Positions 3,870 to 60,171 of a stretch of DNA of 64,000 bases are shown here, one piece after another. A program made the translations under genes and the position numbers. The notes under the pieces are model-generated. The model was not told the origin of the DNA, did no database searches, and saw nothing but the letters and a program-made list of their open reading frames with translations. The DNA comes from Escherichia phage EcWhh-1, in sequence record MH791409.1; one strand, written 5' to 3'. Position 1 is the stretch's first letter. Each line of letters starts with the position of its first letter.

Positions 3870-3900
3870 TTTATTTTCCTCTCATTTGTTGATAGGGTAA

Positions 3901-3930
3901 ATAGTATCACTACCCTACCGTATTGTATAC
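3901..3930 (-). promoter_or_regulatory. early-type promoter variant (GTATAC / TACTAT)
   Basis: minus strand GTATAC, 17 nt, TACTAT, followed by CTATCAAC-like leader shared with other cassettes. Confidence 0.3.
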
Positions 3931-4510: not shown

Positions 4511-4552
4511 AATTTTTCTCTCTTGGTTAAAGGTTTATAATCCATGAGAGCC

Positions 4553-4581
4553 ATTATAACATGGCTCTCGATAAAGTAAAC
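4553..4581 (-). promoter_or_regulatory. early-type promoter (GTTTAC, 17 nt, TATAAT) with -10 box inside a 9-bp inverted repeat
   Basis: minus strand GTTTAC ... CGAGAGCCATGTTATAATGGCTCTCATGG. Confidence 0.45.
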
Positions 4582-5638: not shown

Positions 5639-5665
5639 TTTGTTCTCCTCATGTTGATAGGGTAG

Positions 5666-5694
5666 ATAATATCATGTCATGAGGAGAAGTAAAC
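5666..5694 (-). promoter_or_regulatory. early-type promoter (GTTTAC, 17 nt, TG-n-TATTAT)
   Basis: minus strand GTTTACTTCTCCTCATGACATGATATTATCTACCCTATCAACATGAGGAG; inverted repeat CTCCTCATG/CATGAGGAG brackets the -10 and the Shine-Dalgarno. Confidence 0.5.
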
Positions 5695-8245: not shown

Positions 8246-8995
8246 TTAACCTCTAATCAGTGAAAAAATTGAAGCATTCAGCGGAAGACCTTTTTTCAAC
8301 TTCAATTTGTCAATAAAAGAAAGGTGTTCTAAACGCTCCAGACCTTGAATAATTTTATCATACATATCGTAACGCGTTTCTGCTTCAGACAATTTAAACT
8401 TGACACGCCAGTCAGGTCCACCAATTAAAGATTTAAGACCTTTTTCCATAGTACCGATTGAAGCATTAGAACCGTGGATACGGGCCTTAACTGCGATAAC
8501 AGAAGGAGTCTTATCAGTAGCTCCTGATTTAATAAGGTCTTTAAGACGTTTTTCACGTTTTTTAAGACCTCTTTGGGTATCTTTTATATTTTTAACGATT
8601 TTACGGATTTTATAATAATTATCAGGGGTAACTTTAAAACTATTAGGCATTTTAGAACTACCTGAAATACGAACTGCTAAACGAGTCTGAGCACGTTTCA
8701 GTTCATCAAGGGACAAATCGGCACGTAAGCTGTTATACTTAACTTTAACTGGGATTACATTACCCTCAATATAGCCGATATCGTTGTTAAAACGTTCAAA
8801 TGAAATCTTATCATTAACTGAATTTTCATCAAAGTACTCGCCTGAATAAGCGCACACTTTTTGTTCGAGAAGTCTACGAACATATTTACTAGACAGATTG
8901 AAGTCCTTACCACGTTTATAAGCAGAAGCTTTGGTGTGTTTGCGGCGGTTGTAAACCTTTAACTCAAATTCATCGTTAGTTTTAATAGTAGGCAT
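8246..8995 (-). CDS. hypothetical basic protein; possible degenerate HNH-type endonuclease motif; occupies the T4 srd position
   Basis: 249 aa, K/R-rich; segment CAYSGEYFDEN...SFERFNNDIGYIEGNV resembles the C-x-YCG ... S-x-DRID-x-x-GY-x-x-NV pattern of some HNH families; assignment uncertain. Confidence 0.35.
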   Translation of the reverse strand: MPTIKTNDEFELKVYNRRKHTKASAYKRGKDFNLSSKYVRRLLEQKVCAYSGEYFDENSVNDKISFERFNNDIGYIEGNVIPVKVKYNSLRADLSLDELKRAQTRLAVRISGSSKMPNSFKVTPDNYYKIRKIVKNIKDTQRGLKKREKRLKDLIKSGATDKTPSVIAVKARIHGSNASIGTMEKGLKSLIGGPDWRVKFKLSEAETRYDMYDKIIQGLERLEHLSFIDKLKLKKGLPLNASIFSLIRG

Positions 8996-9035
8996 GATAT
9001 TTTTCTCATCTTACGGACGATTAGTTGATAGGTCT

Positions 9036-9064
9036 ATAGTATCATGTTGCTTGATAAAGTAAAC
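9036..9064 (-). promoter_or_regulatory. early-type promoter cassette (GTTTAC, 17 nt, TG-n-TACTAT, CTATCAAC leader)
   Basis: minus strand GTTTACTTTATCAAGCAACATGATACTATAGACCTATCAAC. Confidence 0.5.
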
Positions 9065-9133: not shown

Positions 9134-9748
9134 TCAGTAAGAAAGAACGGAAAGATTCCAAATGGTGTAATTATTCCATTTAGGATTTCTCTCAATAGAG
9201 TCTACGCGCAGCGTAGTTCCCGCAGGGAACATCATCTCATCTTCATCATTAATTAATTGTAAGTTTGCTACACGTGTAGATTCAGGAAATGCGCCTGGGA
9301 ACTCTTCAGGGGGCGCAGCACATAACATTTTAAAGATTTCTTCCTGATAATTGTACACAAATGGCGCATCATTAATACAAAAGATATTAAATGTGCCGTA
9401 GAAGTTATAAGATGCGAAATTCCTTGCTACGTTGAAGTCTTTAGAGAAGCTCATCACACGGTCGAATTCAATTACCGCACCCACACACATTGTGGACTCT
9501 AGATACTTCAGGGTCTTTTTAGATATACCGCGATAGAGCTTATCAGGCACTACAGAAGTCAGGTTCTTACGAATAATTTTGTTCAGAGTTTCCTGGATAG
9601 AATCAGGTTTATTTTCCATACACTGCCAGAGCGTGCTCTGTTCTAAATCAGAATACACCTCATCAATTTCTATCTGAGTATTCTCACGGAAATCATCGCA
9701 TTTGGCATTGTTGATAAATTCTGCTAATTTATGGCTTGGATATAACAT
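9134..9748 (-). CDS. ADP-ribosyltransferase (ModA/ModB-like)
   Basis: 204 aa; R-S-E triad candidates: LYRGIS, SFSKDF, NDEDEMMF; tandem with a second paralog as in T4 modA/modB. Confidence 0.55.
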   Translation of the reverse strand: MLYPSHKLAEFINNAKCDDFRENTQIEIDEVYSDLEQSTLWQCMENKPDSIQETLNKIIRKNLTSVVPDKLYRGISKKTLKYLESTMCVGAVIEFDRVMSFSKDFNVARNFASYNFYGTFNIFCINDAPFVYNYQEEIFKMLCAAPPEEFPGAFPESTRVANLQLINDEDEMMFPAGTTLRVDSIERNPKWNNYTIWNLSVLSY

Positions 9749-9773
9749 ATTATTCTCCTCAGTTGATAGAAAG

Positions 9774-9803
9774 ATAGTAACATAAGCATCCTTGCCTGTA
9801 AAC
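9774..9803 (-). promoter_or_regulatory. early-type promoter (GTTTAC, 18 nt, TACTAT)
   Basis: minus strand GTTTACAGGCAAGGATGCTTATGTTACTATCTTTCTATCAAC. Confidence 0.4.
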
Positions 9804-10372
9804 TAAAAATCTAACATTTTTAAATGAATTGTTTTATACTCGATTTCGTATGGATCCCTTTTGACGGTTTCGATTGCAACAATCTCAAATCGCGATAGAC
9901 TAGAGACCATGAACTCACATTCAGTTTCAACCATATCATAGAGGTCGATACGAGATTCATCTATTTCAAGCTCATCCACATTCCCTGCAAGAACAAGGTC
10001 GATAGCATGATTGTAGTAGTCGAAAATGAACGGTGCATTCCTGAGACTTAAAATGGTTTTGGTTCCATACTCCCATGCCCCTGCGAACTGACGAGCCTGA
10101 GAGTATTGTGTACTAAAAGAAGTAACTCGACCAGGAGACCATTGACACCCTACTGAAAGGAGCTCTAATTGCTCAAGTTCTCTGGTGGTAATCCCACGAT
10201 ACAACTCTACTGGAACCGCTGAAGTAACATGCTTGCGAACCAGTTTGTCGAGGTCGTAATGGAAGTTAGGGTCTTTTTTGGCGTCCAGACATTTCTCTAA
10301 CAACGCTTGTTCAGATTTTGAAAATTTAGAATTGATTCGGTCTTGATAAAGACATTTTTGTTCGATGTTCAT
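9803..10372 (-). CDS. ADP-ribosyltransferase (ModA/ModB-like)
   Basis: 189 aa; LYRGITTRE (Arg), SFSTQYSQAR (S-T-S), ECEFMVSS (E-x-E). Confidence 0.55.
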   Translation of the reverse strand: MNIEQKCLYQDRINSKFSKSEQALLEKCLDAKKDPNFHYDLDKLVRKHVTSAVPVELYRGITTRELEQLELLSVGCQWSPGRVTSFSTQYSQARQFAGAWEYGTKTILSLRNAPFIFDYYNHAIDLVLAGNVDELEIDESRIDLYDMVETECEFMVSSLSRFEIVAIETVKRDPYEIEYKTIHLKMLDF

Positions 10373-10396
10373 ATGACCTCCAGTGATTTAGAGGTC

Positions 10397-10425
10397 ATTA
10401 TAACATGAAGGGAGGGGGTGTAAAC
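10397..10425 (-). promoter_or_regulatory. early-type promoter (GTTTAC, 17 nt, TG-n-TATAAT)
   Basis: minus strand GTTTACACCCCCTCCCTTCATGTTATAATGACCTC. Confidence 0.45.
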
Positions 10426-12023: not shown

Positions 12024-12253
12024 AGGAAACCTCGTTTAAATTCAACTTTATCAATATCATCAGTCTCGTGACGGATTTCGGCGTTAAATTCGATAGAACC
12101 GTCTTCATGCATCATAAATGAATGGACAATAACTTCGGTATACCAAGGAGTATAGAAATACTTTTTCAATACGTGATTAGCGATAATTTCATCCAAAGTT
12201 TTATTTGGTTTAATCCAACGATTTAACATAGTGTTCTCCTCTATAAGATACAT
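12020..12253 (-). CDS. hypothetical protein
   Basis: track ORF 77 aa. Confidence 0.45.
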   Translation of the reverse strand: MYLIEENTMLNRWIKPNKTLDEIIANHVLKKYFYTPWYTEVIVHSFMMHEDGSIEFNAEIRHETDDIDKVEFKRGFL

Positions 12254-12255
12254 CT

Positions 12256-12285
12256 ATCTTAACATGGCCTACTCGTAAAGTAAAC
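12256..12285 (-). promoter_or_regulatory. early-type promoter (GTTTAC, 18 nt, TAAGAT)
   Basis: minus strand GTTTACTTTACGAGTAGGCCATGTTAAGATAGATG. Confidence 0.35.
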
Positions 12286-12289
12286 TACT

Positions 12290-12318
12290 AAAACGAAAAA
12301 AGGAACCCGAAGGTTCCT
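12290..12318 (-). terminator. rho-independent terminator after soc
   Basis: minus strand GGAACCTTCGGGTTCC hairpin followed by T-run. Confidence 0.5.
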
Positions 12319-12323
12319 TATAA

Positions 12324-15486: not shown

Positions 15487-15772
15487 CTGTCACCTCTTTA
15501 ACGATATTTTTGTTATCGAAATTAGCATCACAGTACAGAACATAGTTATACTGCATAACACCGCTAGAAGCCAATTGGTCAGATACTTCTTTAACCATAT
15601 CAGGACGGTCACGTTTAGTGATGTTCATGATATCGGCATAAATCTGATGCTCAACTGCTTCTTGATCGGCAGTCATAGACCACTCACAAAGGTCTGCGTC
15701 ATAACCGGCCGTTACCGGAGCCGTGCCACATGATGCTACTGTAAGGATTGCTGCGATTAATAACTTTTTCAT
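15479..15772 (-). CDS. lipoprotein / periplasmic protein (possible Spackle-position protein)
   Basis: start moved to MKKLLIAAILTVASCG (signal peptide with lipobox); lies in the 61.x block where T4 encodes periplasmic Sp. Confidence 0.4.
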   Translation of the reverse strand: MKKLLIAAILTVASCGTAPVTAGYDADLCEWSMTADQEAVEHQIYADIMNITKRDRPDMVKEVSDQLASSGVMQYNYVLYCDANFDNKNIVKEVTGE

Positions 15773-15800
15773 TTTTAACTCCTCGTTAGTTGATAGGTCC

Positions 15801-15830
15801 ATAGTATCATTACCATAGACCATTGTAAAC
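15801..15830 (-). promoter_or_regulatory. early-type promoter cassette
   Basis: minus strand GTTTACAATGGTCTATGGTAATGATACTATGGACCTATCAAC. Confidence 0.45.
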
Positions 15831-16538: not shown

Positions 16539-16809
16539 TTAAACAAACCACATCTACCGGAGCAATTACACGATAAAGACGAGGTTCTCCTCCCACTGAA
16601 CGAGCAGCTCGTCCAGCATAAATCTTAGCCAAACCGATATCTTCAGTAAAGAATACACGATTCAGGTTTTTCTTACGACCAGTTTCAGACAGAACTCCTG
16701 TTTCCTCAGGAGGACAAAGCATATTACCAATATTAGCCACACTACAACTTCCGTGATAATACACTTTATATTCTGCTTTACAGTCGATGGTTTTCATTTT
16801 GTTCTCCAA
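16480..16809 (-). CDS. hypothetical protein
   Basis: track ORF 109 aa; start may be internal. Confidence 0.4.
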   Translation of the reverse strand: MENKMKTIDCKAEYKVYYHGSCSVANIGNMLCPPEETGVLSETGRKKNLNRVFFTEDIGLAKIYAGRAARSVGGEPRLYRVIAPVDVVCLNDTKGATVYHAEWAFCEEI

Positions 16810-16821
16810 GTTGATAGGTCT

Positions 16822-16850
16822 ATAGTATCATGCCTATAGGAGATGTAAAC
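16822..16850 (-). promoter_or_regulatory. early-type promoter cassette
   Basis: minus strand GTTTACATCTCCTATAGGCATGATACTATAGACCTATCAAC. Confidence 0.5.
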
Positions 16851-16854
16851 CCTT

Positions 16855-16879
16855 AAAACAAAAAAGGAGCCGAAGCTCC
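16855..16879 (-). terminator. rho-independent terminator after gene 41
   Basis: minus strand GGAGCTTCGGCTCC hairpin followed by T-run, directly 3' of the gene 41 stop. Confidence 0.5.
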
Positions 16880-18319
16880 TTAAAATTTGATAGATGCTGC
16901 TAAATCGTCTAAATCACTTCTATTAACACGCGACTGGCGATTGACCTCTGCTTGGCGGTTCATTTCACCTGTAGCCTCACGAACAGTGTTCACTGGACCT
17001 GGGTTAAAATCGTCTTCAACTTCATACCAACGCTGGTTTCCTTTCTTAACACCAATCTTAAATTTGTTGTAGTAGCTCTTATCACCATAACGAGATTTAA
17101 GCTGCTTAACCATCTGCATACCCATCTGAGCAAACTCTTCTGTCTCGACCACACCTAACATGAAGTCTGCAGTATGTGCAATACCAAAGGATTCAGCGAT
17201 ATCAGCCATATCGATTTCGGCGGCAACGTTCGCACCACGAGTAGTCTGGGCTGCAGTCCACAACAATAATTTCTTCTCTACTGCAAGTCCACGTAGTTCT
17301 TCGGCAACCATCTTAATCAATCCATAACTGTTTTCAGAGAAAACTTTCGTACGGGATGAAGCACAGATAGCCAAGTAGTCGACGATAACGACCTGTGGGA
17401 CAAAGTTTTGTTTGAGCTTGTATTCGTTTAATAATGCACGGAATGTATCGGCATTAGCACCACCAGTAGGGTACTGTTTAATCTTTAAACGACCTAAAGT
17501 AGCAGTTGAACGCCACTTATCCATCTTAGCTTTATATTCAGGCCATGAGACGTGACCATCATCGATATCATCCAGTGATACATCCAGAAGGTTAGCATCG
17601 ATACGCTTAGCACATACTTCCTCTGCCATCTCCATAGAGATATAAAGAACATCATAACCGGATTGAAGGTAATCAGCAGCCAATGAACACAGTCCAAGAG
17701 ACTTACCTACGTTTGTTCCTGCCAACAATACGTTTTCAGTACCAAACTCTGCTCCACCCTTAGTAATCTTGTTCAGAATATTAAGACGGAATGGAACCTT
17801 ACGTGCTTTATCGGAATAACTTTTGAATCGTTCTTCATAGTCATCCATCCAGTCATGACCTAATTCGGAATCGAAACAAATCGATAATGCATCACGCATG
17901 ATATCTGGAATAGCACCAATACCTGGAAGTTTTCTATTTTGTTGCTCAACCGGAAGGTCGGCATTAGTTTGGATTTCAATGATTTTTGAAGTTGCATTAT
18001 ACATCGCTGCTTTCTGAACGTATTTCTCCGTTTCTTTAACCAACCATTCTTGGTCTTCGGGTCCAGCATTCAGTGAGCTTAAAAGCTCTTTAGCTCCTTG
18101 ATGTTCAACTTCTGAAAGCGTACTGTTATCTAATGCAATGCTCAATGCGTTCTTAGAAGGCACTGCATTATATTCATTGACGTGTTTTTTAATTTCTTTG
18201 AAAAGGGTCTTTGCAGGACCCTGGTCAAAATATGAATCATTCATATAAGGCCAGACCTTAGTGAAATAATCACTATTGCCTAGCAGTTGAGCCAAAATAG
18301 TTTCTACCACTTCCACCAC
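16880..18319 (-). CDS. 41: replicative DNA helicase (DnaB-like)
   Basis: 479 aa; near full-length similarity to remembered T4 gp41 (Walker A GTNVGKSLG, ...LYISMEMAEEVCAKRIDANLLDVSLDDIDDGH...); annotated start codon appears to be GTG. Confidence 0.9.
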   Translation of the reverse strand: MVEVVETILAQLLGNSDYFTKVWPYMNDSYFDQGPAKTLFKEIKKHVNEYNAVPSKNALSIALDNSTLSEVEHQGAKELLSSLNAGPEDQEWLVKETEKYVQKAAMYNATSKIIEIQTNADLPVEQQNRKLPGIGAIPDIMRDALSICFDSELGHDWMDDYEERFKSYSDKARKVPFRLNILNKITKGGAEFGTENVLLAGTNVGKSLGLCSLAADYLQSGYDVLYISMEMAEEVCAKRIDANLLDVSLDDIDDGHVSWPEYKAKMDKWRSTATLGRLKIKQYPTGGANADTFRALLNEYKLKQNFVPQVVIVDYLAICASSRTKVFSENSYGLIKMVAEELRGLAVEKKLLLWTAAQTTRGANVAAEIDMADIAESFGIAHTADFMLGVVETEEFAQMGMQMVKQLKSRYGDKSYYNKFKIGVKKGNQRWYEVEDDFNPGPVNTVREATGEMNRQAEVNRQSRVNRSDLDDLAASIKF

Positions 18320-24886: not shown

Positions 24887-25123
24887 TCATTGTTTAACGA
24901 TAATGATTTGTGCGTTTGATTTATGTTCAGCGACTATAGCCCAGATTAAAGCCACTACCCAACCAATCATCGTCCACCCTAACAGGAGATTAAGGAAGAA
25001 GATTCCGACATTGCTACGAGTGCCTCGCAGAAGGGCCAGAATCCATGGTAAAAAGTAACCAATGAACATAATAACCAGAGAACCGAATCCTAAAACACCA
25101 GCACTAACGATTAAAGCTTCCAT
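24887..25123 (-). CDS. imm: superinfection immunity protein Imm-like membrane protein
   Basis: start moved to MEALIVSAGVLG (ATG with GAGGAA Shine-Dalgarno); two TM helices with FLPWILALL...GWTMIGWVVALIWA; sits between 42 and 43 as in T4. Confidence 0.5.
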   Translation of the reverse strand: MEALIVSAGVLGFGSLVIMFIGYFLPWILALLRGTRSNVGIFFLNLLLGWTMIGWVVALIWAIVAEHKSNAQIIIVKQ

Positions 25124-25154
25124 TGTAATTTCCTCTAAGTAGTTGATAGGAAGG

Positions 25155-25184
25155 ATACTACCACGTTCCTTGTGGTATGTAAAC
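25155..25184 (-). promoter_or_regulatory. early-type promoter (GTTTAC, 18 nt, TAGTAT)
   Basis: minus strand GTTTACATACCACAAGGAACGTGGTAGTATCCTTCCTATCAAC. Confidence 0.4.
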
Positions 25185-36805: not shown

Positions 36806-37046
36806 TTAAATAATCCTCAAATTCATTTAATGTCATGCCTTCGTCCCAAGCTATTTTAGGATCGGGCATTTTCATATAAGTGGTCTTAGAGCTTATAGGA
36901 AATATCCTGAAATCGCGATGACTTCCACTTAGCATATTAGCCGCTTTTATAATGGTTTCACTATTATTCATCATAGGGGTACGTTGGAAACCGGCTAAAG
37001 CTTTAAGGACTATTATAACCGATACATCTTCAGGCAAATTACTCAT
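36798..37046 (-). CDS. hypothetical protein
   Basis: track ORF 82 aa. Confidence 0.4.
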   Translation of the reverse strand: MSNLPEDVSVIIVLKALAGFQRTPMMNNSETIIKAANMLSGSHRDFRIFPISSKTTYMKMPDPKIAWDEGMTLNEFEDYLND

Positions 37047-37372
37047 TTAGCTGCCTTAACAATTTTCAGGTCAACGAATTTTTTCTTACGTTGATTCTTC
37101 ATACGACGGATGGTTTTGTCTGTGATTTCACCTGGCTGCCAAGCTTTAGATTCGACACCAAAGGCGGCCACATCAAACTCGTCGAGAATATATTGAACCA
37201 GGATTTCACGAATACCGTTCTTACCAATTTTTTGGTCTTTAGAGTGCATGATTGGTAACAGTTCAGCAACCCATTGGTCAAGAACCTGAGGAGTTACAAA
37301 GCCAGTTTTCATCAGTTCATTAACTTTATCGAAAGCGAAAGAGTTCAGTACGTTTTTAATAGCTTGTGACAT
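37043..37372 (-). CDS. hypothetical protein (N-terminus MSQAI..., shared with 44090..44938)
   Basis: track ORF 109 aa. Confidence 0.4.
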   Translation of the reverse strand: MSQAIKNVLNSFAFDKVNELMKTGFVTPQVLDQWVAELLPIMHSKDQKIGKNGIREILVQYILDEFDVAAFGVESKAWQPGEITDKTIRRMKNQRKKKFVDLKIVKAAK

Positions 37373-37441
37373 AATAATTTCCTCAGTTTAAAAATTTATA
37401 ATCCGTAGGACCATTATACTCTGGTCCCAAGAGTTTGTAAA

Positions 37442-37642
37442 CTATTTTTGTGCTAATGCACCTTTCCAACCTTCATACATCATTGCGGCTGATATTAATA
37501 TTGCTCCTGCGCATTTTGAATATTTGTTATTCCAAAACCAGTTTAGAAAAACTTCGTCATCAATACCTTGAGCTATCATATTTTCAAAGAACTGACGACG
37601 GGCTTCAGCAATTCGTTGTGATAATTTAGATTCAGGATTCAT
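37442..37642 (-). CDS. hypothetical protein
   Basis: track ORF 66 aa. Confidence 0.4.
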   Translation of the reverse strand: MNPESKLSQRIAEARRQFFENMIAQGIDDEVFLNWFWNNKYSKCAGAILISAAMMYEGWKGALAQK

Positions 37643-38077: not shown

Positions 38078-38332
38078 TTACCTCAACAGTTTGTATCCAA
38101 TAAGGTTTTTAATGTACTGGATGTCTTTGATATCCAAATCCAACTTAAGGTCTTTCAGACGGTCGGCCAGGGTCAAAAAGGTTACATGCTTCCAATTCTT
38201 AACAGGACAGCAATAAGTCTTAGGACCATTTGCAATTTCAATATTCTTATCAGTGACGGTGAGAAAAATTAGGCGCTCATCATCCAGATTAAGGGTGATG
38301 ACATTTTTCATTGAATGCAATTTCAGGCTCAT
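38078..38332 (-). CDS. hypothetical protein
   Basis: track ORF 84 aa. Confidence 0.4.
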   Translation of the reverse strand: MSLKLHSMKNVITLNLDDERLIFLTVTDKNIEIANGPKTYCCPVKNWKHVTFLTLADRLKDLKLDLDIKDIQYIKNLIGYKLLR

Positions 38333-38505
38333 AATTTAATTTCCTTAGCTATCGAACAAAATACACCACGGTCACAAATCATTTTAATATTAAGGTCAAT
38401 TATGGTATACCACACGTCTAGGCTAGATATTTCAGTTACTAGAACAGCTTTGCCGTTGATTGAATAATACTGGTTGACTTTAATTTCTTTATCTTGGATA
38501 GTCAT
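38329..38505 (-). CDS. small hypothetical protein (58 aa), not in ORF track
   Basis: MTIQDKEIKVNQYYSINGKAVLVTEISSLDVWYTIIDLNIKMICDRGVFCSIAKEIKL; GAGGAG Shine-Dalgarno; stop overlaps downstream ATG. Confidence 0.4.
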   Translation of the reverse strand: MTIQDKEIKVNQYYSINGKAVLVTEISSLDVWYTIIDLNIKMICDRGVFCSIAKEIKL

Positions 38506-38534
38506 AATGTTCTCCTCATGTGTTGATAGGATAG

Positions 38535-38563
38535 ACTATAACACGTGAGGAGAGGAAGTAAAC
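38535..38563 (-). promoter_or_regulatory. early-type promoter cassette (GTTTAC, 17 nt, TATAGT)
   Basis: minus strand GTTTACTTCCTCTCCTCACGTGTTATAGTCTATCCTATCAACACATGAGGAG with inverted repeat CTCCTCACGTG/CACATGAGGAG. Confidence 0.5.
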
Positions 38564-39492: not shown

Positions 39493-39966
39493 TCATTTAA
39501 GCGATTTCCTCAGTTGTTTTTTAAACGAATCGACCATTTGTTTCTTAGTGGCAGATTCATTATAAGTCATTCCATGTGAAAGCATTTCAGCAATCATTTC
39601 TTCCTTACCCAACCTGCTGAACTCTTTGGTTTTATCAGGAACGAAATTAGGATGAATATTATTTTCAGTATAATCAGCTTTCAGATAGACCAGCAAATTC
39701 TCTAACCATTCGAGGTAGTCAACGTTTTGACCTTTAAGACCAGAACGGTTGAACTTATGCTTCATTTGTCCTTCTGCAGCATTGCACAGGTTACATAGTA
39801 AACCACGAACCTTACCGGCTTTTGGCCCGTTTAACTCGTGGTCGTGGTCAAGGTGGTTACTTTGAACATCAGGGTTTAATTCACGTTTACAAATCAAACA
39901 CTTACCACATTGTGCATCATAAAGTTTTTGTTTTTCTTCTTTGTATAATTTGCCGGTCAACAACAT
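39493..39966 (-). CDS. 49: endonuclease VII (Holliday-junction resolvase)
   Basis: 157 aa; MLLTGKLYKEEKQKLYDAQCGKCLICKRELNPDVQSNHLDHDHELNGPKAGKVRGLLCNLCNAAEG... about 90 percent identical to remembered T4 gp49. Confidence 0.93.
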   Translation of the reverse strand: MLLTGKLYKEEKQKLYDAQCGKCLICKRELNPDVQSNHLDHDHELNGPKAGKVRGLLCNLCNAAEGQMKHKFNRSGLKGQNVDYLEWLENLLVYLKADYTENNIHPNFVPDKTKEFSRLGKEEMIAEMLSHGMTYNESATKKQMVDSFKKQLRKSLK

Positions 39967-40001
39967 AATAAACCCTTACCATTATTAGATAAGGGTATTT
40001 A

Positions 40002-40187
40002 TTATTTTTCAAATGTACTATAGAACGAACGATGCAACCGTTTAAATTGACGAATCATCTTTTTGGTAGGGCGAGTATACAATCCTACACAGGTGGCCAT
40101 AAACTGGTCGGTAGGACTTCCTTTGATAAGAAGTTTCCAGACCTTACTGCCATCCAACTTTTCGGTATAGACTAATTTAGTTTTCAT
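40002..40187 (-). CDS. small basic protein, RPTKRQ-motif family
   Basis: 61 aa with TRPTKKMIRQFKRLHRSFY. Confidence 0.45.
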   Translation of the reverse strand: MKTKLVYTEKLDGSKVWKLLIKGSPTDQFMATCVGLYTRPTKKMIRQFKRLHRSFYSTFEK

Positions 40188-40476
40188 CAGAACGCCTTAT
40201 CAGCAAAGCGAAGTTGAGCTTCAAGCCAATGGATATAGTCGGCTGCAGCTTTAATCAAATCGGATTCTAGGTCAGGTAAAGAACCCGAATCCGACAACTC
40301 GTAAAGCGAATGTTCAATCAGACGGCCTTTGTGACGGCCAATTTCAATTTTGGTACTCATATCCAAACTCCATATCGATTAAATCATTGTTTGAAGGTTC
40401 ATTATACTCTATTTCGGAATCGTTGTAAACCGGTTCCTCTGGCTCGGTAGTTTCCCACCGAGCGACATACCATGGC

Positions 40477-41930: not shown

Positions 41931-42937
41931 TTCAGCAGCTCCAGAGCCTGTTCAAGACGGTCTAAACGATTGGTAGACTCTTCCCAAAGTTTCTTGGCAG
42001 CGGTATATTGCCCGGTCAGTTTTTTGTTAATAGCCAAGGCATCTTTATACGCTTTTTCTAAGGCAACGATTTCCGGTAACTTGGATTTAGTAATTGGTGT
42101 ATGGGCCATGATAGGGCTGTTCAAGTCGTTAATCAAGTCTTCTAATGTAGCAGGCTCTTTATCAGTATTCACAATTTCCTCACATTTTTCTTGGTAAATT
42201 TCAGCGTCAGTTTTTGGAACGGTACATTTGATTTCGCGAACTGTTACTAAGACCTCATATCCTTTCCAGCCTAAGCGGTGTTTAACTTCTTGGGTCTCAT
42301 ATTTCTCTACTGTATCCATCAAAGCTAGGGCTTGTTCGATAGTATTCAAGGTATCGTAAGCAATATCTTGATACTTTACAACTTCCGCATCATCTTTAGG
42401 TTTCCTATTAGGTGACCAAATAACAGAAATAATAGCTTTTCCTTTATAACTATTTGTTTTAATCATGCAATTAGCCATCGGGTGAATAGTACGACAATCA
42501 CCGGAAACTATAGTTTTAGAGGCCGCTTTGAGAATTAATGCAGAGTTAGCCTTGAATTCGCTAACCCAACGTTGCGGAAATAAACTACTAGGGTCCATAC
42601 CTTTAATTTTGATATAACCTTTTATGGTATCACCAAACCATTTGTAGCTAACAACGTGGCTAGAACCCGGATATTTCTCTTTACCGAACTCAGAAAGGAT
42701 GTCCTTATTGACCAGTCGAGAAAGCAGTCGAGAACCTTTAAATGTATCTACGATATCAGGAATAAACAAACGACCCGCTATCTTTTCGATTTCAGCTTTG
42801 AAACAGCGCGATAATGCATCATCAATTTGGTCGACCCATTTATTGATATTAGAAACTATTACCACATATGGGGTTAATGGAGGGGTGTTGGCAGTGATAT
42901 ACGTAGTAAAGGCATTGATGTATTCAGTACGAGTCAT
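41927..42937 (-). CDS. hypothetical protein with C-terminal coiled coil
   Basis: 336 aa; ends ...[20 protein letters not shown]. Confidence 0.5.
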   Translation of the reverse strand: MTRTEYINAFTTYITANTPPLTPYVVIVSNINKWVDQIDDALSRCFKAEIEKIAGRLFIPDIVDTFKGSRLLSRLVNKDILSEFGKEKYPGSSHVVSYKWFGDTIKGYIKIKGMDPSSLFPQRWVSEFKANSALILKAASKTIVSGDCRTIHPMANCMIKTNSYKGKAIISVIWSPNRKPKDDAEVVKYQDIAYDTLNTIEQALALMDTVEKYETQEVKHRLGWKGYEVLVTVREIKCTVPKTDAEIYQEKCEEIVNTDKEPATLEDLINDLNSPIMAHTPITKSKLPEIVALEKAYKDALAINKKLTGQYTAAKKLWEESTNRLDRLEQALELLK

Positions 42938-42963
42938 GATATTCTCCTCAAGTTGATAGAAAG

Positions 42964-42993
42964 ATTATACTCCATCCATCCTTGGATGTAAAC
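42964..42993 (-). promoter_or_regulatory. early-type promoter (GTTTAC, 18 nt, TATAAT)
   Basis: minus strand GTTTACATCCAAGGATGGATGGAGTATAATCTTTCTATCAAC. Confidence 0.45.
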
Positions 42994-45001: not shown

Positions 45002-45526
45002 TTATGCGAGAACCGTCTTTAAACGCTCTTCAAATTTCTGAAGCAGAGCTTGGCGTTCAGCTCGTTGTGATTTGTACTGCTCGATACGACCTGAAGTGAG
45101 GGCGTACTGTTCGTTTACTGATTCCCGCATGAATTCAGGAATCTCTTTACACGCTTTGATTTCGTCAAACTTATCAATAACCGCTTGTTCCTCGGCAATC
45201 AGATTATCGAAATAAGCGATATCAGATTTAACATTTGCCAGGTCGGATTCAGTAGGCATTAAACGTTTGTTACGTTCAGCTTGATAAGCTTGATTGTTTT
45301 CACGGCTCCAGTAAAGAATACGTTTTTTGTTAGTGTTTTTATAGAGCTCTACAATACCAACTGAATCGATGATAGCAATCCAGTTCCAACGGCTTTTGTA
45401 AATCTCTCCTCCAGATACGGTAATCTCATTACCACAAGCAACGTCGTTAAAGAACTTGCTTTGTTTTTCAGATTTGAAATTACCATTATTAAAATTAATC
45501 AGTGAAAAAATATCTTTAGCGTTCAT
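45002..45526 (-). CDS. hypothetical protein
   Basis: track ORF 174 aa. Confidence 0.45.
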   Translation of the reverse strand: MNAKDIFSLINFNNGNFKSEKQSKFFNDVACGNEITVSGGEIYKSRWNWIAIIDSVGIVELYKNTNKKRILYWSRENNQAYQAERNKRLMPTESDLANVKSDIAYFDNLIAEEQAVIDKFDEIKACKEIPEFMRESVNEQYALTSGRIEQYKSQRAERQALLQKFEERLKTVLA

Positions 45527-45552
45527 GATAACCTCCAGTAGTTGATAGGTCT

Positions 45553-45581
45553 ATAGTATCATTTCTACTGGAGATGTAAAC
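45553..45581 (-). promoter_or_regulatory. early-type promoter cassette
   Basis: minus strand GTTTACATCTCCAGTAGAAATGATACTATAGACCTATCAACTACTGGAGG with inverted repeat CTCCAGTAG/CTACTGGAG. Confidence 0.5.
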
Positions 45582-45935: not shown

Positions 45936-46931
45936 TTATTTCAGAAGTGTAACTTCAGCGATTTCGTTCCAGTCATTTTTATCAGTGGCAATGAAGTCCG
46001 CCAGATAAAGAGCTGTACGTAATGATACGTTACGAAGACGAGATACATTAGCCTTCATCCATGCTAAAGCTTGATAAGTCTCAGCATCAGTCAGACCTCG
46101 ATTTTGCATCATATCAGTGGACAGGATAACGTCTTCAACACGAACCATAATCTCTTCGTTCGAGTGAACTCCGAGGTCTAAGTAAACTGAACGAGATACT
46201 AAAGCCTGGAGGTGTGGAGCAAGTTTAGTTCCACGCTCTAATTCACGGTCAATATCAACGTTGGTGATGAACACGATGGTGCCTTCGTATTCGAATTCTT
46301 TATCGATATTTTTATCATCGAGGTAAGAACTTGAAGTGCTCCAGCACACTTTACGTTTTTCACCAGTATCCAATGCTGCTTTTAACAGGTTCAGGATATC
46401 CATATCAGAGAATACATCAACATCATCGATAAGAAGAACACTATTAGGGCCGCGGTTATTCCAAAGCTGCTCGTAAAGACCGATTCCACTAATCTTTCCG
46501 TTGATTGATTTATATTCGATAGTTTCATTTTCGTGGGCATTTTGTAATGCTTTATCCAAAGAATACGTTTTACCAATACCTGCGGCACCAGAGATGATAA
46601 GGGAACGAATTTTACCATCGATGATTCCGTTGGTCATCATGTTCATTACTTTAAAACGTTTGTTGATGCGATGTTTCATTTCTTCAGCGGATTCAGTAAT
46701 CACTACAGGAGCTTCAGTACCTTCCATTTCAACGTCACATTTGAACACCCATACACCACGTTCAACACCATCAATCTGTACGAATACCTTGCCATCACCG
46801 AGGTGAGCTTCGGATTCATGAATTTTATTTGGGAACCAGGTTTTACCTGAACTCATGAACGTACCAGAGATTTCATTACCGCGATAGATACCTTTGTTGA
46901 TTTTGATAGTTAACATTTTATTCTCCTTCAC
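45936..46931 (-). CDS. P-loop (AAA-like) ATPase
   Basis: 331 aa; Walker A ISGAAGIGKTYS, Walker B VLLIDDVDVF, sensor-like FITN. Confidence 0.55.
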   Translation of the reverse strand: MKENKMLTIKINKGIYRGNEISGTFMSSGKTWFPNKIHESEAHLGDGKVFVQIDGVERGVWVFKCDVEMEGTEAPVVITESAEEMKHRINKRFKVMNMMTNGIIDGKIRSLIISGAAGIGKTYSLDKALQNAHENETIEYKSINGKISGIGLYEQLWNNRGPNSVLLIDDVDVFSDMDILNLLKAALDTGEKRKVCWSTSSSYLDDKNIDKEFEYEGTIVFITNVDIDRELERGTKLAPHLQALVSRSVYLDLGVHSNEEIMVRVEDVILSTDMMQNRGLTDAETYQALAWMKANVSRLRNVSLRTALYLADFIATDKNDWNEIAEVTLLK

Positions 46932-46951
46932 TCAGTAGATTTGATAGGTCT

Positions 46952-46980
46952 ATAATAACATGTTTGAAATGGATGTACAC
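46952..46980 (-). promoter_or_regulatory. early-type promoter variant (GTGTAC / TG-n-TATTAT)
   Basis: minus strand GTGTACATCCATTTCAAACATGTTATTATAGACCTATCAAATC. Confidence 0.4.
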
Positions 46981-46982
46981 AC

Positions 46983-47213
46983 TTATTTTGCAATAATTTC
47001 ACAGAAGCCATCTTTATAGCGGGCCCATGTTTCACCATTTACTGTATAAAGAGCAGCTTTACGACCATTAGGCATAACAACTTGTTTACCTTTGTTTTTA
47101 GTTACAGCTTCAATAATTTCGTATTCTTCGGCACGATCAGCTTTAAATGTATCTTCCAGAGCGATCAAGTTAGTAGTGTAAGAACCGTATTTGTAATTTT
47201 TGATAGCGTACAT
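46983..47213 (-). CDS. hypothetical protein
   Basis: track ORF 76 aa. Confidence 0.4.
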   Translation of the reverse strand: MYAIKNYKYGSYTTNLIALEDTFKADRAEEYEIIEAVTKNKGKQVVMPNGRKAALYTVNGETWARYKDGFCEIIAK

Positions 47214-47263
47214 TTTTATATCTCCGTTTGGTTTAAGTTTTCAGCTCTTTAGCTGATAGGTCT

Positions 47264-47291
47264 ATAATAACATGTTTAAAGCAGATGTACA
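47264..47291 (-). promoter_or_regulatory. early-type promoter variant (GTGTAC / TATTAT)
   Basis: near-duplicate of the 46952..46980 cassette: GTGTACATCTGCTTTAAACATGTTATTATAGACCTATCAGC. Confidence 0.4.
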
Positions 47292-47311
47292 CTACTTTTT
47301 TGCACTAAACC

Positions 47312-47333
47312 CAAAAAAGGCCCGAAGGCCTTT
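47312..47333 (-). terminator. rho-independent terminator (symmetric A-run / T-run)
   Basis: AAAAAAGGCCCGAAGGCCTTTT immediately 3' of the stop of 47336..48346. Confidence 0.5.
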
Positions 47334-47335
47334 TA

Positions 47336-50315: not shown

Positions 50316-50546
50316 TTAAATTTTTTCGAATAATGCTAAAGCTTTTTCGATAGCTACAGATTTAGTACCAATAACCATTTTAGGCTGGTATTGGAACTTA
50401 GTAGCTTCGTAAACTTCTAAACCGGTTACTTTACCATTTTGTTCGATAATAGCAAAGGTGGCGTTTTCAAAATCTTCAGCTTTAACTTTAAGTGCTTTAG
50501 AAGCTTTAGCGATATCGATAACTTTCAGGTTGGTGATGGTTTTCAT
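50316..50546 (-). CDS. hypothetical protein
   Basis: track ORF 76 aa, directly downstream of a promoter cassette. Confidence 0.4.
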   Translation of the reverse strand: MKTITNLKVIDIAKASKALKVKAEDFENATFAIIEQNGKVTGLEVYEATKFQYQPKMVIGTKSVAIEKALALFEKI

Positions 50547-50574
50547 TTTGTTCTCCTCATTAGTTGGTAGGTCT

Positions 50575-50603
50575 ATAGTATCATGTTCCTAGAGGATGTA
50601 AAC
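50575..50603 (-). promoter_or_regulatory. early-type promoter cassette
   Basis: minus strand GTTTACATCCTCTAGGAACATGATACTATAGACCTACCAACTAATGAGGAG. Confidence 0.5.
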
Positions 50604-50612
50604 ACCTAAACG

Positions 50613-50642
50613 AAAAAAGGTCCCACCGAAGTGAGACCTTTG
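50613..50642 (-). terminator. rho-independent terminator
   Basis: minus strand AAAGGTCTCACTTCGGTGGGACCTTTTTTCG hairpin plus T-run, directly after the stop of 50644..51027. Confidence 0.45.
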
Positions 50643-54006: not shown

Positions 54007-54465
54007 TTAAAGATAGATTACTTTCGTGCTGGTTTTACCTTCTAAACGTTTAGAGTTAACAAATGCCATACGACATTTTAATGAATATCCTTTATCAGGA
54101 TGTTTACGATCTACGGTCATACCCAACCATAAGGTTTTATCGGTAATCTCGAGACGCAGCGGACGATACACCTTACCTGGGACAATTTCGGATTCTACAT
54201 CAGGCAGAGGTTCCTGGATTAAGAATTCATGGATTTCTTTAACATGGTTATGGAGTTGCTTGAATAAAGCAAAAACGTATTTTTCGTCGATTTCACGTTG
54301 GATAGCACGGTCCAACAAATGATTGGAGTACTTAATAAAGAAGGCTGGGACTCCGCTCTTAATGGCGGCTTTTTTGATGGACGCATTCAGTTCACGGAAT
54401 TCGGTTTCAAACTGACGACGTAATTTGTTGCGGCGGATGAATACTTCTGAATTAATTTCTGACAT
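54007..54465 (-). CDS. regB: site-specific endoribonuclease RegB
   Basis: 152 aa; EVFIRRNKLRR.FE.EFR..N..I......G...F..KYS.HLLDRAIQREIDE.YVF.LF...YRP.RLEITD..LWLG closely matches remembered T4 RegB. Confidence 0.9.
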   Translation of the reverse strand: MSEINSEVFIRRNKLRRQFETEFRELNASIKKAAIKSGVPAFFIKYSNHLLDRAIQREIDEKYVFALFKQLHNHVKEIHEFLIQEPLPDVESEIVPGKVYRPLRLEITDKTLWLGMTVDRKHPDKGYSLKCRMAFVNSKRLEGKTSTKVIYL

Positions 54466-54493
54466 TTTGTAATCTCCTGTAGTTGATAGGTTT

Positions 54494-54522
54494 ATAGTAT
54501 CATGTCTACAGGAGATGTAAAC
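54494..54522 (-). promoter_or_regulatory. early-type promoter cassette upstream of regB
   Basis: minus strand GTTTACATCTCCTGTAGACATGATACTATAAACCTATCAACTACAGGAG with inverted repeat CTCCTGTAG/CTACAGGAG. Confidence 0.5.
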
Positions 54523-56203: not shown

Positions 56204-56503
56204 TTAGAAAGAACCAGAACCTTTAATTGTGTTCTGACGACCTTTATTTTCTAATTCAGAGTGGTCGATTTCATATGCTTGTGCTACGCCAAAGGCCTTT
56301 TTAACTTTAGCTAAAGAACCTTTAGATGTAACAATATTAAAAGTATTACCTTTGGTAAAATCAACCAAATCGACTTGTACACCCTGTTTACCAAGGCTTG
56401 CTACAATAGCGTCAACATATTCTTGGTCTAAAGTGCCTTGGACTCCAATTTGAAATGCTTTAGGGGCTTTGGCTTCTGTAATAAATTCTTGATAAGTTTT
56501 CAT
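56204..56503 (-). CDS. capsid internal protein (IPII-like) with N-terminal capsid-targeting sequence
   Basis: 99 aa beginning MKTYQEFITEA, the conserved T4 internal-protein targeting/propeptide sequence. Confidence 0.6.
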   Translation of the reverse strand: MKTYQEFITEAKAPKAFQIGVQGTLDQEYVDAIVASLGKQGVQVDLVDFTKGNTFNIVTSKGSLAKVKKAFGVAQAYEIDHSELENKGRQNTIKGSGSF

Positions 56504-56524
56504 ATTATTCCTTAAGTTGATAGA

Positions 56525-56554
56525 AGTATTCTATCACGGATTTAATTAAGCGTA
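56525..56554 (-). promoter_or_regulatory. early-type promoter variant (ATTTAC / TAGAAT)
   Basis: minus strand ATTTACGCTTAATTAAATCCGTGATAGAATACTTCTATCAAC; overlaps the 3' end of denV. Confidence 0.3.
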
Positions 56555-56962
56555 AATAGCCTTACCATAATGTTTGTACCAGGTAGGGCGCTGTGCAATT
56601 TTTTCGTCTAAACGGGCTTGTGAAATAGCGATAGAAGCTTCGTGAGGAACATAATCACCACGGAATTCCTGAGGAATATCACTAATGTCCTGGACCGTAG
56701 TATCCTTGATATTAAAACCACGTTTTAAACATTCGGCTATAAGCTCAATTTGTCGCTTACGTAAAAATTCAAGCTTATCGTAAAAGAATGTAACATGGCC
56801 TGTGCCAAGGATAAAAGTAGGACTGATTTTAAAATCACGAACACGTTTACCGTTAGCAACATGCTTACGAACTGCACCGAAAACACGTGGTAATTCACGA
56901 TATTCAGCCATTAAGTGTTGGTCAGCCAATTCAGATACTAAGGTAAGGTTGATACGAGTCAT
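56546..56962 (-). CDS. denV: endonuclease V (pyrimidine-dimer DNA glycosylase/AP lyase)
   Basis: 138 aa; [53 protein letters not shown]... essentially identical to remembered T4 DenV. Confidence 0.95.
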
Positions 56963-56990
56963 TTTTTAATCTCCTGTAGTTGATAGGTCT

Positions 56991-57019
56991 ATAGTATCAT
57001 GCCTACAGGAGAAGTAAAC
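56991..57019 (-). promoter_or_regulatory. early-type promoter cassette upstream of denV
   Basis: minus strand GTTTACTTCTCCTGTAGGCATGATACTATAGACCTATCAACTACAGGAGATTAAAAAATG; 9-bp inverted repeat CTCCTGTAG/CTACAGGAG places the Shine-Dalgarno in a hairpin only in read-through transcripts. Confidence 0.55.
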
Positions 57020-57418
57020 TTATTTGTAAGTTTTCATCCAATTCTTAAACAAAGCTGCGACGTCTTTCTCTTTAACGTTCAATTTAACGTCCAGCATTTT
57101 GCCACCAGCGGCACGTGTCTGACGAATCTTAGCCGTACCGGTTTCGCCATTCCACTCAACATAATACTGTCCGGTGTTCATAGCGATACCATCGCCATAG
57201 TCTTCGTTCTTAGAAGTAGTGAATGCTAACTTCATGGTCTTAGAGACACGGGCCTGCATGCCTGTCTGCAGAGCGTTACGAACGCGAATAACCTGAGGAG
57301 TGGCCTGGGTAAGGTTCTCATTCAGTTCTTCAGTGAACTCTTCGGATTCAAACATCGCCAAAAGTTCTTTAGATGCAGGAATTACATTCTCTGCGATAAA
57401 TTCATTATAAGTTTTCAT
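57020..57418 (-). CDS. capsid internal protein (IPIII-like) with N-terminal capsid-targeting sequence
   Basis: 132 aa beginning [10 protein letters not shown]. Confidence 0.6.
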
Positions 57419-57899
57419 ATGCTTTCCAAGTACCTGTTTTAAATGTAGAAATCACGCGCTTAGCACGATTAGGAGTTTGTCTATACCAACGAGATTGAGC
57501 CAGGTTAACTGCCGCATCGTCCCAACGTTTCTGTTGGAGCATACGTAAAGAGTTAGTGAACCCTGCTACGCCTGCTTCACCCATTTGGAAGACCATGTTA
57601 ATTAAAGCACAACGACGAACTTCGTCCAGTACATCATAAACAGGTTTCAATTTAGGATTACGCAGAATAGCTCTACGAGCATTTTCAACCGATCGGTTAA
57701 AGAGTTGCTCAGCTTCAGCCATAGTAATACGACCGTTGCAAACTCGACCCATAAGCTTATCAAGTTCAGCGCGAGCAACATCTTTAGATGGGTTCTTGGT
57801 AATCAACTGGCCAATGCCAATAGTCCAATAACCTTCGGTGTCTTTATAAAGATTTAAATCAAGACCTTCGTCTTGACGTAACATATCAAAAATATCCAT
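57405..57899 (-). CDS. e: endolysin (T4 lysozyme)
   Basis: 164 aa, same length as T4 lysozyme; [22 protein letters not shown]...A..ELDK..GR.CNG.IT..EAE.LFN......[68 protein letters not shown]. Confidence 0.95.
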
Positions 57900-57903
57900 A
57901 ATA

Positions 57904-57921
57904 CCTCCTGAGTATAGGAGG
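57904..57921 (-). promoter_or_regulatory. RBS-sequestering hairpin in the gene e leader
   Basis: minus strand CCTCCTATACTCAGGAGG: 6-bp stem whose 3' arm is the AGGAGG Shine-Dalgarno of e. Confidence 0.45.
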
Positions 57922-57929
57922 TATTTATA
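57922..57929 (-). promoter_or_regulatory. late promoter TATAAATA for gene e
   Basis: exact late-promoter octamer immediately 5' of the hairpin; a late transcript would start at the hairpin 5' arm and leave the Shine-Dalgarno free. Confidence 0.5.
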
Positions 57930-58379
57930 TCAAAAGAGCGAATCTAAAACCTTAAACATCGACGGACCCATGACATATTCCCATTGAGGACGTTTAATCA
58001 AGGCGAACGCATCGAATTCAGGAACCGTGCGACCATCAGGGAACGTATGGTAAGCGGTACATTTGCAATCCTTGAACTGCTCGTGTTCCACAGGCACAGT
58101 ATATAAGAACAGATGTAGATTCTTATTGCTTGAATATTTGAACTCACCTAGGTCTTTCAGGAACGCAGGATCGTATGCTGTGAATCCGATCTCTTCTTCG
58201 GTTTCACGCATTGCCGCTTGAATAGGCTCTTCGCCCGGTTCGACATGGCCTTTAGGAATGTCCCATTTATGACGCATGTTCTCTGGATTACGAGAGCCTG
58301 TTACACGACCCATAACTAGTTCTTTATCAACGGTCATGAATAAAATACCGGCAGATAATTCTTTCGCTTTCTTACTCAT
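57930..58379 (-). CDS. nudE: Nudix hydrolase
   Basis: start moved to MSKKAKELSAGILF (ATG verified); Nudix box GHVEPGEEPIQAAMRETEEEIGF; sits immediately after e as in T4. Confidence 0.75.
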   Translation of the reverse strand: MSKKAKELSAGILFMTVDKELVMGRVTGSRNPENMRHKWDIPKGHVEPGEEPIQAAMRETEEEIGFTAYDPAFLKDLGEFKYSSNKNLHLFLYTVPVEHEQFKDCKCTAYHTFPDGRTVPEFDAFALIKRPQWEYVMGPSMFKVLDSLF

Positions 58380-59892: not shown

Positions 59893-60105
59893 TTACTTTT
59901 TGTTGAAAAAGTACATTTTACCTTTAGGGGACAAGGATACACGAAGTGCATTACCAATACCAACTGAACATTTAACCAGGTCAGCAGATTTCAATTCACC
60001 AAATGCTTGACGAAGGTCTCCATCACGAGTGTTAACCATCAGGCATTTAGCACCAGCTGCACGAACTTCGTTTAACATGTTGATTGCTTGATTAGAAAGT
60101 TTCAT
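59893..60105 (-). CDS. hypothetical protein
   Basis: track ORF trimmed to ATG with GGAGAA Shine-Dalgarno (MKLSNQAINMLNEV...); the longer track start would overlap the promoter cassette. Confidence 0.4.
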   Translation of the reverse strand: MKLSNQAINMLNEVRAAGAKCLMVNTRDGDLRQAFGELKSADLVKCSVGIGNALRVSLSPKGKMYFFNKK

Positions 60106-60142
60106 TTTATTCTCCATTTCACTCTGTTGTTTTGATAGGTCT

Positions 60143-60171
60143 ATAGTATCACACCTATAGACCTTGTAAAC
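60143..60171 (-). promoter_or_regulatory. early-type promoter cassette
   Basis: minus strand GTTTACAAGGTCTATAGGTGTGATACTATAGACCTATCAAAAC. Confidence 0.5.

Follow-up and report, generated by a model that had tools for sequence, protein, structure and literature searches.

Why would a phage promoter carry, between its −35 and −10 elements, the complement of the served gene's ribosome-binding site? The region upstream of denV in Escherichia phage EcWhh-1 raises this question. We analysed a stretch of 64,000 nt of this phage (sequence record MH791409.1; hereafter the window), and all cassettes, arms and terminators located below lie on its minus strand. At denV, a conserved early-promoter cassette that recurs upstream of many genes is followed by a Shine-Dalgarno sequence (SD) that can pair with the spacer of the promoter itself. 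We use the term gated for a cassette whose anti-SD arm pairs with the downstream SD in read-through RNA. With a probability of roughly 0.6, we conclude that anti-SD arms in the spacer or discriminator of early promoters gate the translation of denV, regB, the genes at 45002-45526, 38329-38505 and 5129-5638 and, in a variant form, the gene at 9803-10372.

Transcript and protein timing are decoupled for many genes of phage T4, and as late as 2022 the cis determinants were still regarded as open (PMC9697503). Between positions 55000 and 59000, the window is 94-96% identical to the JS98/JS10-like Dhakavirus phages, which are T4 relatives. The JS10 annotation places regB, denV, ipIII and e in this interval, all on the minus strand, and the T4 gene order is followed across the window from cef/motB through e. 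An Rfam search of the entire window returned zero family matches.

Results

The pattern GTTTAC-N14-TGnTAYTAT matched the window 15 times with at most two mismatches (1.68 ± 1.48 expected), and a looser scan gave 23 candidate cassettes; both sets were confined to the minus strand. The initial annotation had described such a cassette upstream of many genes, in about 20 copies, which is a fair count, and all ten of the sites that it listed were recovered among our matches. Its 17-nt gap failed when read literally, as N17 followed by TGn (0 matches), because 17 nt is the −35/−10 spacing, in which TGn is already counted. The denV copy (56991-57019) reads GTTTAC-TTCTCCTGTAGGCA-TGATACTAT and is followed by AGACCTATCAAC, CTACAGGAG and the denV ATG. 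The element AGACCTATCAAC occurred 15 times with at most two mismatches, against 4.7 expected, and 11 of the 15 occurrences adjoined a cassette.

The full layout consists of what may be an A-rich upstream region, GTTTAC, a spacing of 17-18 bp, TGnTAnnAT and the conserved start region CTATCAAC, with the SD and ATG about 20 nt past the start region. The upstream enrichment was modest and is confounded by terminator T runs (68% A+T in the 25 nt 5' of the −35 versus 61% overall; A fraction 0.39 versus 0.31). Genes 3' of the cassettes are orthologues of T4 early genes, namely denV, regB, motB, cef, srd, modA/B-like genes, imm, sp and an internal head protein gene, and T4 promoters occupy places equivalent to those of the window cassettes. 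By its sequence, the cassette is a T4-type sigma-70 early promoter and resembles the PeSL cassettes of T4-like phages considered below. It agrees with the T4 early promoter consensus, for which extra conserved positions have been reported (PMC2988021, PMC1524935), in its −35, extended −10, spacing and downstream genes, but its copies differ far less from each other in the −10 to +6 region (TACTATAGACCTATCAAC) than those of T4 do.

We scored each cassette by the longest perfect complement between spacer and leader. Perfect spacer/SD repeats of at least 8 bp were present in five of the 23 cassettes. The gated denV cassette extends from the −35 GTTTAC to the ATG (56960-57019), with a putative start at 56984; its 5' arm TCTCCTGTAG (57003-57012) lies in the promoter spacer, and its 3' arm CTACAGGAGA (56970-56979) covers the SD GGAG, giving a 10-bp repeat and a hairpin of −18.0 kcal/mol. 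In the regB cassette (54463-54522), an 11-bp repeat joins ATCTCCTGTAG (54506-54516) to the SD arm CTACAGGAGAT (54472-54482; −18.9 kcal/mol). The gene at 45.5 kb (45002-45526, phrog_2274; cassette 45524-45581) has a 9-bp repeat between CTCCAGTAG (45565-45573) and the SD arm CTACTGGAG (45533-45541; −18.3 kcal/mol). At 38.5 kb, the cassette of a gene encoding 58 aa (38329-38505; cassette 38503-38563) pairs TCTCCTCA (38546-38553) with the SD arm TGAGGAGA (38511-38518) over 8 bp (−21.1 kcal/mol). The gene at 5.6 kb (5129-5638, phrog_1106; cassette 5636-5694), which judging by its position is probably the motB.2 counterpart, pairs TTCTCCTCATG (5678-5688) with the SD arm CATGAGGAGAA (5643-5653) over 11 bp (−18.8 kcal/mol).

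A sixth case is the modA/modB-like gene at 10.4 kb (9803-10372), whose gated variant cassette (10370-10425) has its 5' arm ATGACCTC (10391-10398) in the −10/discriminator region and its 3' arm GAGGTCAT (10373-10380) over the SD, with a weaker hairpin of −14.3 kcal/mol. Four further cassettes had matches of no more than 4-5 bp, of the CTCC/GGAG type, and the remaining cassettes had none. Repeats of at least 7 bp were found in 5 cassettes, compared with 0.4 for shuffled spacers and 1.7 for spacers swapped among cassettes; that is, own spacer/leader pairs were more complementary than swapped ones (permutation p = 0.0005 on mean length). The inverted repeats quoted in the initial annotation for denV, regB, 5.6 kb and 45.5 kb are exactly as it gave them. 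Its statement that many copies are bracketed by such repeats was too strong, as they number five of 23, or six with the 10.4 kb variant, and its description of a reused module does not hold for the SD repeat, which is gene-specific rather than a property of the module.

We placed +1 at 7 nt past the −10, at the A of ATCAAC. In the five gated cassettes, the 5' arm then lies 19-31 nt upstream of the putative start, and the hairpin would therefore be possible only in read-through RNA. By this geometry the start of the proximal promoter falls between the two arms, and an error of ±5 nt would still leave the 5' arm outside the transcript. RNAfold placed the SD helix in the minimum-energy fold of the read-through RNA for all five gated cassettes; it was absent from the promoter-started RNA, whose leader of about 20 nt was essentially open. 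The predicted hairpins consist of a helix of 8-11 bp and a loop of roughly 23-27 nt, with isolated energies of −18 to −21 kcal/mol.

We also scanned SD accessibility in 122 minus-strand genes. The five gated genes ranked 1st to 4th and 7th for lowest accessibility, with a probability of 0.00-0.004 that the GGAG is unpaired in read-through RNA. Over a 10-nt SD window, the unpaired probability was 0.01-0.29 in read-through RNA versus 0.32-0.71 in promoter-started RNA. The known hairpin of gene e, a positive control, was picked up by the same scan. The initial annotation had proposed that read-through RNA folds the SD into a hairpin while a locally started transcript lacks the 5' arm; folds and geometry agree with this proposal in the gated subset, and not for the module as a whole. 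In read-through RNA, the extended −10 motif TGATA is also complementary to the start motif TATCA (e.g. 56980-57000), and the two would form an inner 5-bp helix stacking under the SD helix, which may contribute to the conservation of CTATCAAC.

Convincing intrinsic terminators were few. They had UUCG loops, apart from one extra site with a UUAG loop, and the UUCG set lay 5-22 nt 5' of a cassette's −35, a terminator-plus-promoter arrangement as in PeSLs. Two terminator scans found no terminator 5' of the gated cassettes (0/5). In all five, the stop codon of the upstream open reading frame lies 0-4 nt before the −35. Gated promoters are internal to long units, namely 60171 to 50616, 12285 to 2762, 42993 to 34677 and one that begins at 47292 and is free of terminators as far as 45581. 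Because the gated promoters lie inside long terminator-free units, read-through is expected.

Among relatives, the exact core TGATACTATAGACCTATCAAC was found almost only in about seven Dhakavirus-sized genomes (IMG/VR), and a degenerate pattern yielded 89 unique cassettes. At least 8 of 11 Watson-Crick pairs were present in register in 21 of the 89, compared with 0-3 in slid registers, and new arm pairs appeared among them (CATCTCCATTAG/CTAATGGAGATG and TTCTCCAGTAGTTG/CAACTACTGGAGAA). In the gap-free alignment A1, the covariation score of the helix was 0.280, versus 0.175 ± 0.013 for shuffled alignments (0/500 reached it) and 0.13-0.20 for slid registers; because sequence relatedness inflates these numbers, we placed more weight on comparisons of orthologues.

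For denV orthologues, the SD was occluded (unpaired probability < 0.05) in 27 of 35 distinct upstream regions. The median unpaired probability was 0.001 in read-through RNA, 0.32 in upstream-shuffled sequences and 0.36 in promoter-started RNA. At least eight unrelated arm solutions were present at this gene (e.g. TCTCCTGTAG, TTCCTCCAAG, ATCTCCGTTTG, TCTCCTGTG and a 14-mer), and in several orthologues the 5' arm lies in the −10/discriminator and pairs with the stretch from SD to AUG. Orthologues of gene 5129-5638 were occluded in all 11 distinct upstream regions, with two arm types. Those of regB were occluded in 8 of 18, and two more were near 0.1; here the spacer/SD pairing is kept in T4 (TCCTCTT/AAGAGGA), in Dhakavirus, in locus L049 (14 bp) and in two lineages that add an inner helix, with arms that differ. 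That is, because the pairing is kept while the arm sequences differ among orthologues, we argue that the pairing has been under selection.

The sp gene served as a negative control. Only 2 of its 16 distinct upstream regions were occluded, both of them also paired in promoter-started RNA, so that promoter-dependent SD occlusion was not found at sp in these 16 regions. Read-through unpaired probabilities of sp were 0.38-0.85 in non-Dhakavirus relatives, which is control-like, and the Dhakavirus sp SD was paired also when promoter-started.

Some comparisons suggested that terminators and SD hairpins exclude each other. Four denV loci of phages of about 350 kb (L131, L135, L137 and L141) carry a terminator, GGGTTGACTTCGGTCAGCCC plus a T run, between −35 TTGAC and −10 TATAAT, which is the RB49-type PeSL design, and their SD was accessible in 4/4. 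Occlusion at denV was thus seen in 0 of 4 loci with a terminator versus 27 of 31 without (p ~0.001). In the group of the window, a terminator accompanies a pairing of only 5-6 bp at the 16.8 kb gene, which has a 14-bp repeat in a lineage without the terminator. Across cassette groups of relatives, the SD hairpin was present in 0 of 8 with a terminator versus 13 of 39 without (p = 0.085).

The SD-pairing feature is not peculiar to this phage, because T4 denV and regB have the pairing as well. At denV, the T4 promoter matches the Dhakavirus consensus cassette almost throughout, both arms included; regB of T4 carries an arm pair of its own, and in T4 modB an 8-bp pair covers the start codon. The remaining early-promoter-like sites, about 12 in the roughly 60 kb of T4 scanned, lacked such arms, and the arms are more frequent in EcWhh-1 than in T4.

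Discussion

We propose the following mechanism. A polymerase coming from an upstream promoter would transcribe both arms, and the resulting hairpin would bury the GGAG, so that the buried cistron would not be initiated independently in the read-through RNA. RNA from the gene's own promoter would start between the arms, carry a leader of about 20 nt free of structure and be translated. With the early promoters off within minutes and read-through persisting, the proteins would be made as an immediate-early pulse only. In this model, the gated genes are probably translated only from own-promoter transcripts. Three steps of this model are inferred: where transcription starts, that read-through RNA exists and that translation is affected. 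That T4-like phages in general use early-promoter anti-SD arms as a gene-specific, own-promoter-only gate, as an alternative to terminators that insulate early genes, is a broader claim for which we see the odds as even.

The principle itself has precedent. Long transcripts of the T4 genes e, soc, 49 and I-TevI fold so that the SD or AUG is hidden, which blocks 30S binding, and promoter RNA without the 5' strand is translatable (PMC3014915); the initial annotation was therefore right to regard it as known from single T4 genes such as e. Like these, the cassettes described here have the SD paired in the long transcript (by prediction) and the start between the arms. In the T4 cases, however, the promoter between the arms is a late gp55 promoter (TATAAATA) and translation is delayed until late, whereas here an early sigma-70 promoter takes that place, its −35/−10 spacer holds the 5' arm, and the predicted timing is reversed (first minutes only). 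The early promoter inside the gate and the predicted reversal of timing are what is new relative to known gates; the cassette was already known. We found no earlier description of SD occlusion at early promoters in the reviews and papers searched, which did not cover the older literature (e.g. Liebig and Ruger 1989), where an earlier mention is possible. The window also contains the classical T4 arrangement at its own gene e (lysozyme; 57405-57960), where the late promoter TATAAATA is followed by an ACCTCCT/AGGAGGT hairpin over the SD. The gene start at 39966 lies inside a hairpin, AAATACCCTTATC...GGTAAGGGTTTATT (39966-40010), with the late-promoter-like TAATAAATA on its 5' side; this hairpin, also found in the terminator scan, may be another e-type gate.

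The closest published relatives of the cassette are the PeSLs of T4-like phages (RB49/phi1, PST/T4, nt-1/KVP40), in which an early promoter, a stem-loop with terminator activity, an SD and an ATG are combined and the stem-loop overlaps the −10 or is placed between it and the −35; PeSL-like sequences were noted in JS98 (PMC2839356, with PMC4122927 for the cassettes). Both systems share a repeated, conserved intergenic early promoter with SD and start codon, and some window copies resemble PeSLs further in having terminators directly 5' or hairpins over the −10. The PeSL arms, in contrast, all lie at or before the start site; their five subclasses, with the stem-loop 5' of the promoter, inside it or overlapping it, do not include a spacer/SD helix that ends 3' of the start. 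PeSLs have been read as terminators or attenuators and recombination linkers, and the spacer-to-SD helix is not described there.

Could the stem-loops of EcWhh-1 nevertheless be attenuators or terminators that double as homology patches for shuffling, with no translational role? The terminator activity of published PeSLs (PMC2839356, PMC4122927) would favour this, as would the signs of cassette exchange reported at the end of this paper (a T4 motB core at the cassette starting at 37442 and the possible conversion of one spacer in a JS98-like relative). We nonetheless consider it improbable. The 3' arm is always the SD, downstream of the start and outside the five subclasses, and the true UUCG terminators are separate structures, with none at the five gated cassettes. 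Past the 3' arm the sequence is A-rich with no U run, the loop is roughly 23-27 nt, and neither terminator scan called the spacer/SD helices; on sequence grounds, a terminator role of this helix is contradicted. An explanation that involves RegB is more serious. RegB cuts GGAG in early SD sites, its own SD included, and secondary structure inhibits the cleavage (PMC3014915, PMC1702504). The hairpin might therefore serve mainly to shield the internal GGAG of read-through RNA from RegB, and later from RNase E/G, and translation would be silenced as a by-product. In sixteen T4 RNAs that resist RegB, the GGAG lies in stable structures (PMC3014915, PMC1702504), shielding would keep long transcripts whole for downstream genes, the helices bury the GGAG fully, and the denV site of the window, GGAGAUUAAAA, is near the RegB consensus GGAGRAYARAA. 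Against this, most other GGAG sites in these transcription units are unshielded, and T4 denV retains the hairpin although its GGAG is already RegB-resistant through the sequence on its 3' side (PMC1702504). We regard shielding as the main role as unlikely; it agrees with the data, and shielding and a translation gate may operate together. RegB is a trans-acting nuclease directed at the same early-gene GGAG sites, whereas in the gate proposed here a cis RNA structure would choose the transcripts in which they are exposed.

Translational coupling is established at other phage and operon junctions, and in its terms only ribosomes that complete the upstream open reading frame would free the SD in read-through RNA, making each gated gene co-translated with its neighbour instead of silenced. 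The upstream stop codons, 0-4 nt before the −35, do lie near the 5' arm. However, that arm begins 8-12 nt past the stop, which is as far as a terminating ribosome reaches or farther, so that no more than 1-2 pairs of the 9-11 bp would be opened; the strong promoter of each gene leaves no obvious need for coupling either, and we take this explanation to be quite improbable. The complementarity might also have no function, and stem from duplicated cassettes with a shared ancestor, from gene conversion or from template switching during replication that corrects quasi-palindromes. T4 is a classic system for quasi-palindrome mutagenesis, and the denV and regB cassettes of the window are near-duplicates. 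The test for selection at the RNA level was moreover uninformative: G.U exceeded A.C mismatches inside helices by 5 to 1, and four of the five came from near-identical sequences that are probably one lineage. A functionless origin is very improbable all the same, given at least eight unrelated arm sequences at denV alone, occlusion conserved gene by gene and lacking at the control sp, and five genes that are extreme outliers among the 122. The free variation of the arm sequences, with complementarity retained, makes a protein operator unlikely.

Several points weigh against a translation gate built from spacer and SD. The SD pairing is confined to about a quarter of the cassettes, and it is missing at the closely related regB loci L040-L042 (one arm type), in one lineage of the 45.5 kb gene and at denV locus L140. 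The start site is inferred from the position of the −10. The helix might be opened in part by ribosomes that end the upstream reading frame 8-12 nt short of the 5' arm. With regard to the statistics, relatedness inflates shuffle-based covariation, the four denV loci with a terminator look like one clade, and at the cassette level the link of the SD hairpin with the absence of a terminator is no more than suggestive.

What is known of RegB fits a translation gate. The T4 denV RNA resists RegB owing to its sequence and can be cut in vivo once its 3' context is altered (PMC1702504); because the GGAG is then cleavable, early T4 denV transcripts must expose it. Primer extension with a denV primer is described in the Fig. 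5 legend of that study, which names the motB and mobD.5 promoters (PMC1702504). RegB protein is detected early (PMC9697503), and regB has been described as requiring tight control (PMC3014915).

If the gate is real, a simple rule would allow one to read from the sequence which cistrons of a polycistronic early RNA undergo translation, and genes expressed only in the immediate-early phase would become predictable across many T4-like genomes. In combination with RegB, the gate would account for the way in which selected early proteins, among them RegB, DenV and a MotB.2-like protein, cease to be produced while RNA coding for them is still made, and it would add a layer of control on the RegB nuclease. 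The same architecture at T4 denV and regB makes the idea testable in the best-developed phage system. For engineering, the cassette would be a compact part of about 60 bp that ties a gene to its own promoter only.

Other cassettes and terminators of the window

Most remaining cassettes lack the SD repeat. This group includes the sp (spackle) cassette used as negative control (15770-15830), the cassettes of an imm-like gene (25121-25184) and of a second modA/modB-like gene (9746-9803), that of the internal head protein gene, with a weaker −35 ATTTAC (56501-56557), one lacking TGn (42935-42993), and two with −35 GTGTAC (46914-46980 and 47211-47292). The last of these has an intrinsic terminator on its 5' side (47315-47334), as does another cassette without the repeat at 12227-12285 (terminator 12300-12319). 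The cassette at 50544-50603, with a 5-bp CCTC/GAGG match only, directly follows a terminator with a UUCG loop and T run (50616-50641, 13 nt 5' of the cassette). At 16795-16850, the 5' arm is of the denV type, the 3' side is unmatched (5 bp) and a terminator lies 5' (16864-16881). The cassette of an HNH/homing-endonuclease gene (2701-2756) also has a terminator 5' (2762-2777), and the further terminator site with the UUAG loop is at 34696-34677. A less certain but probable early promoter, GTTTAC-N18-TATAAT, lies within the upstream reading frame at 40358-40430, and T4 has a similar site.

The srd cassette (8993-9064) has a long leader (34 nt) without a clear SD. It carries a borderline 7-bp pair over the AUG, formed by CATGATA in the extended −10 region and TATCATG at the start codon, which resembles the 8-bp pair of T4 modB.

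Hairpins of a second class form between a spacer arm and the bases directly past the −10, so that the −10 hexamer forms the loop (4553-4581, 37413-37442, 60143-60171 and 3901-3930); both arms lie upstream of the start. Its members are the motB cassette (4508-4581; arms GAGAGCCAT/ATGGCTCTC), the cassette at 37370-37442 (GGGACC/GGTCC), one without an SD repeat at 60103-60171 (spacer GGTCTATAG with CTATAGACC) and the cef cassette with −35 GTATAC (3867-3930). The motB hairpin is kept in T4 with other arms (GGGACC/GGTCCC versus GAGAGCCAT/ATGGCTCTC). As a second conserved helix, the −10 hairpin showed no covariation above controls, and motB orthologues hint at compensation.

One orthologue of the 45.5 kb gene cassette, L031 from a JS98-like phage, was considered as a recombinant with broken pairing and rejected, since two bases differ and 8 of 9 pairs are kept. 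Both base differences in its spacer, which leave one helix mismatch, are typical of another cassette of its genome (ATCTCCATTAGACA), and gene conversion between cassettes is possible. In addition, the 37-nt core TAGTTTACAAACTCTTGGGACCAGAGTATAATGGTCC (37406-37445) is shared exactly between the motB promoter of T4 (L105) and the window cassette starting at 37442, where it stands before a different gene (37043-37372), which suggests shuffling of promoter cassettes.

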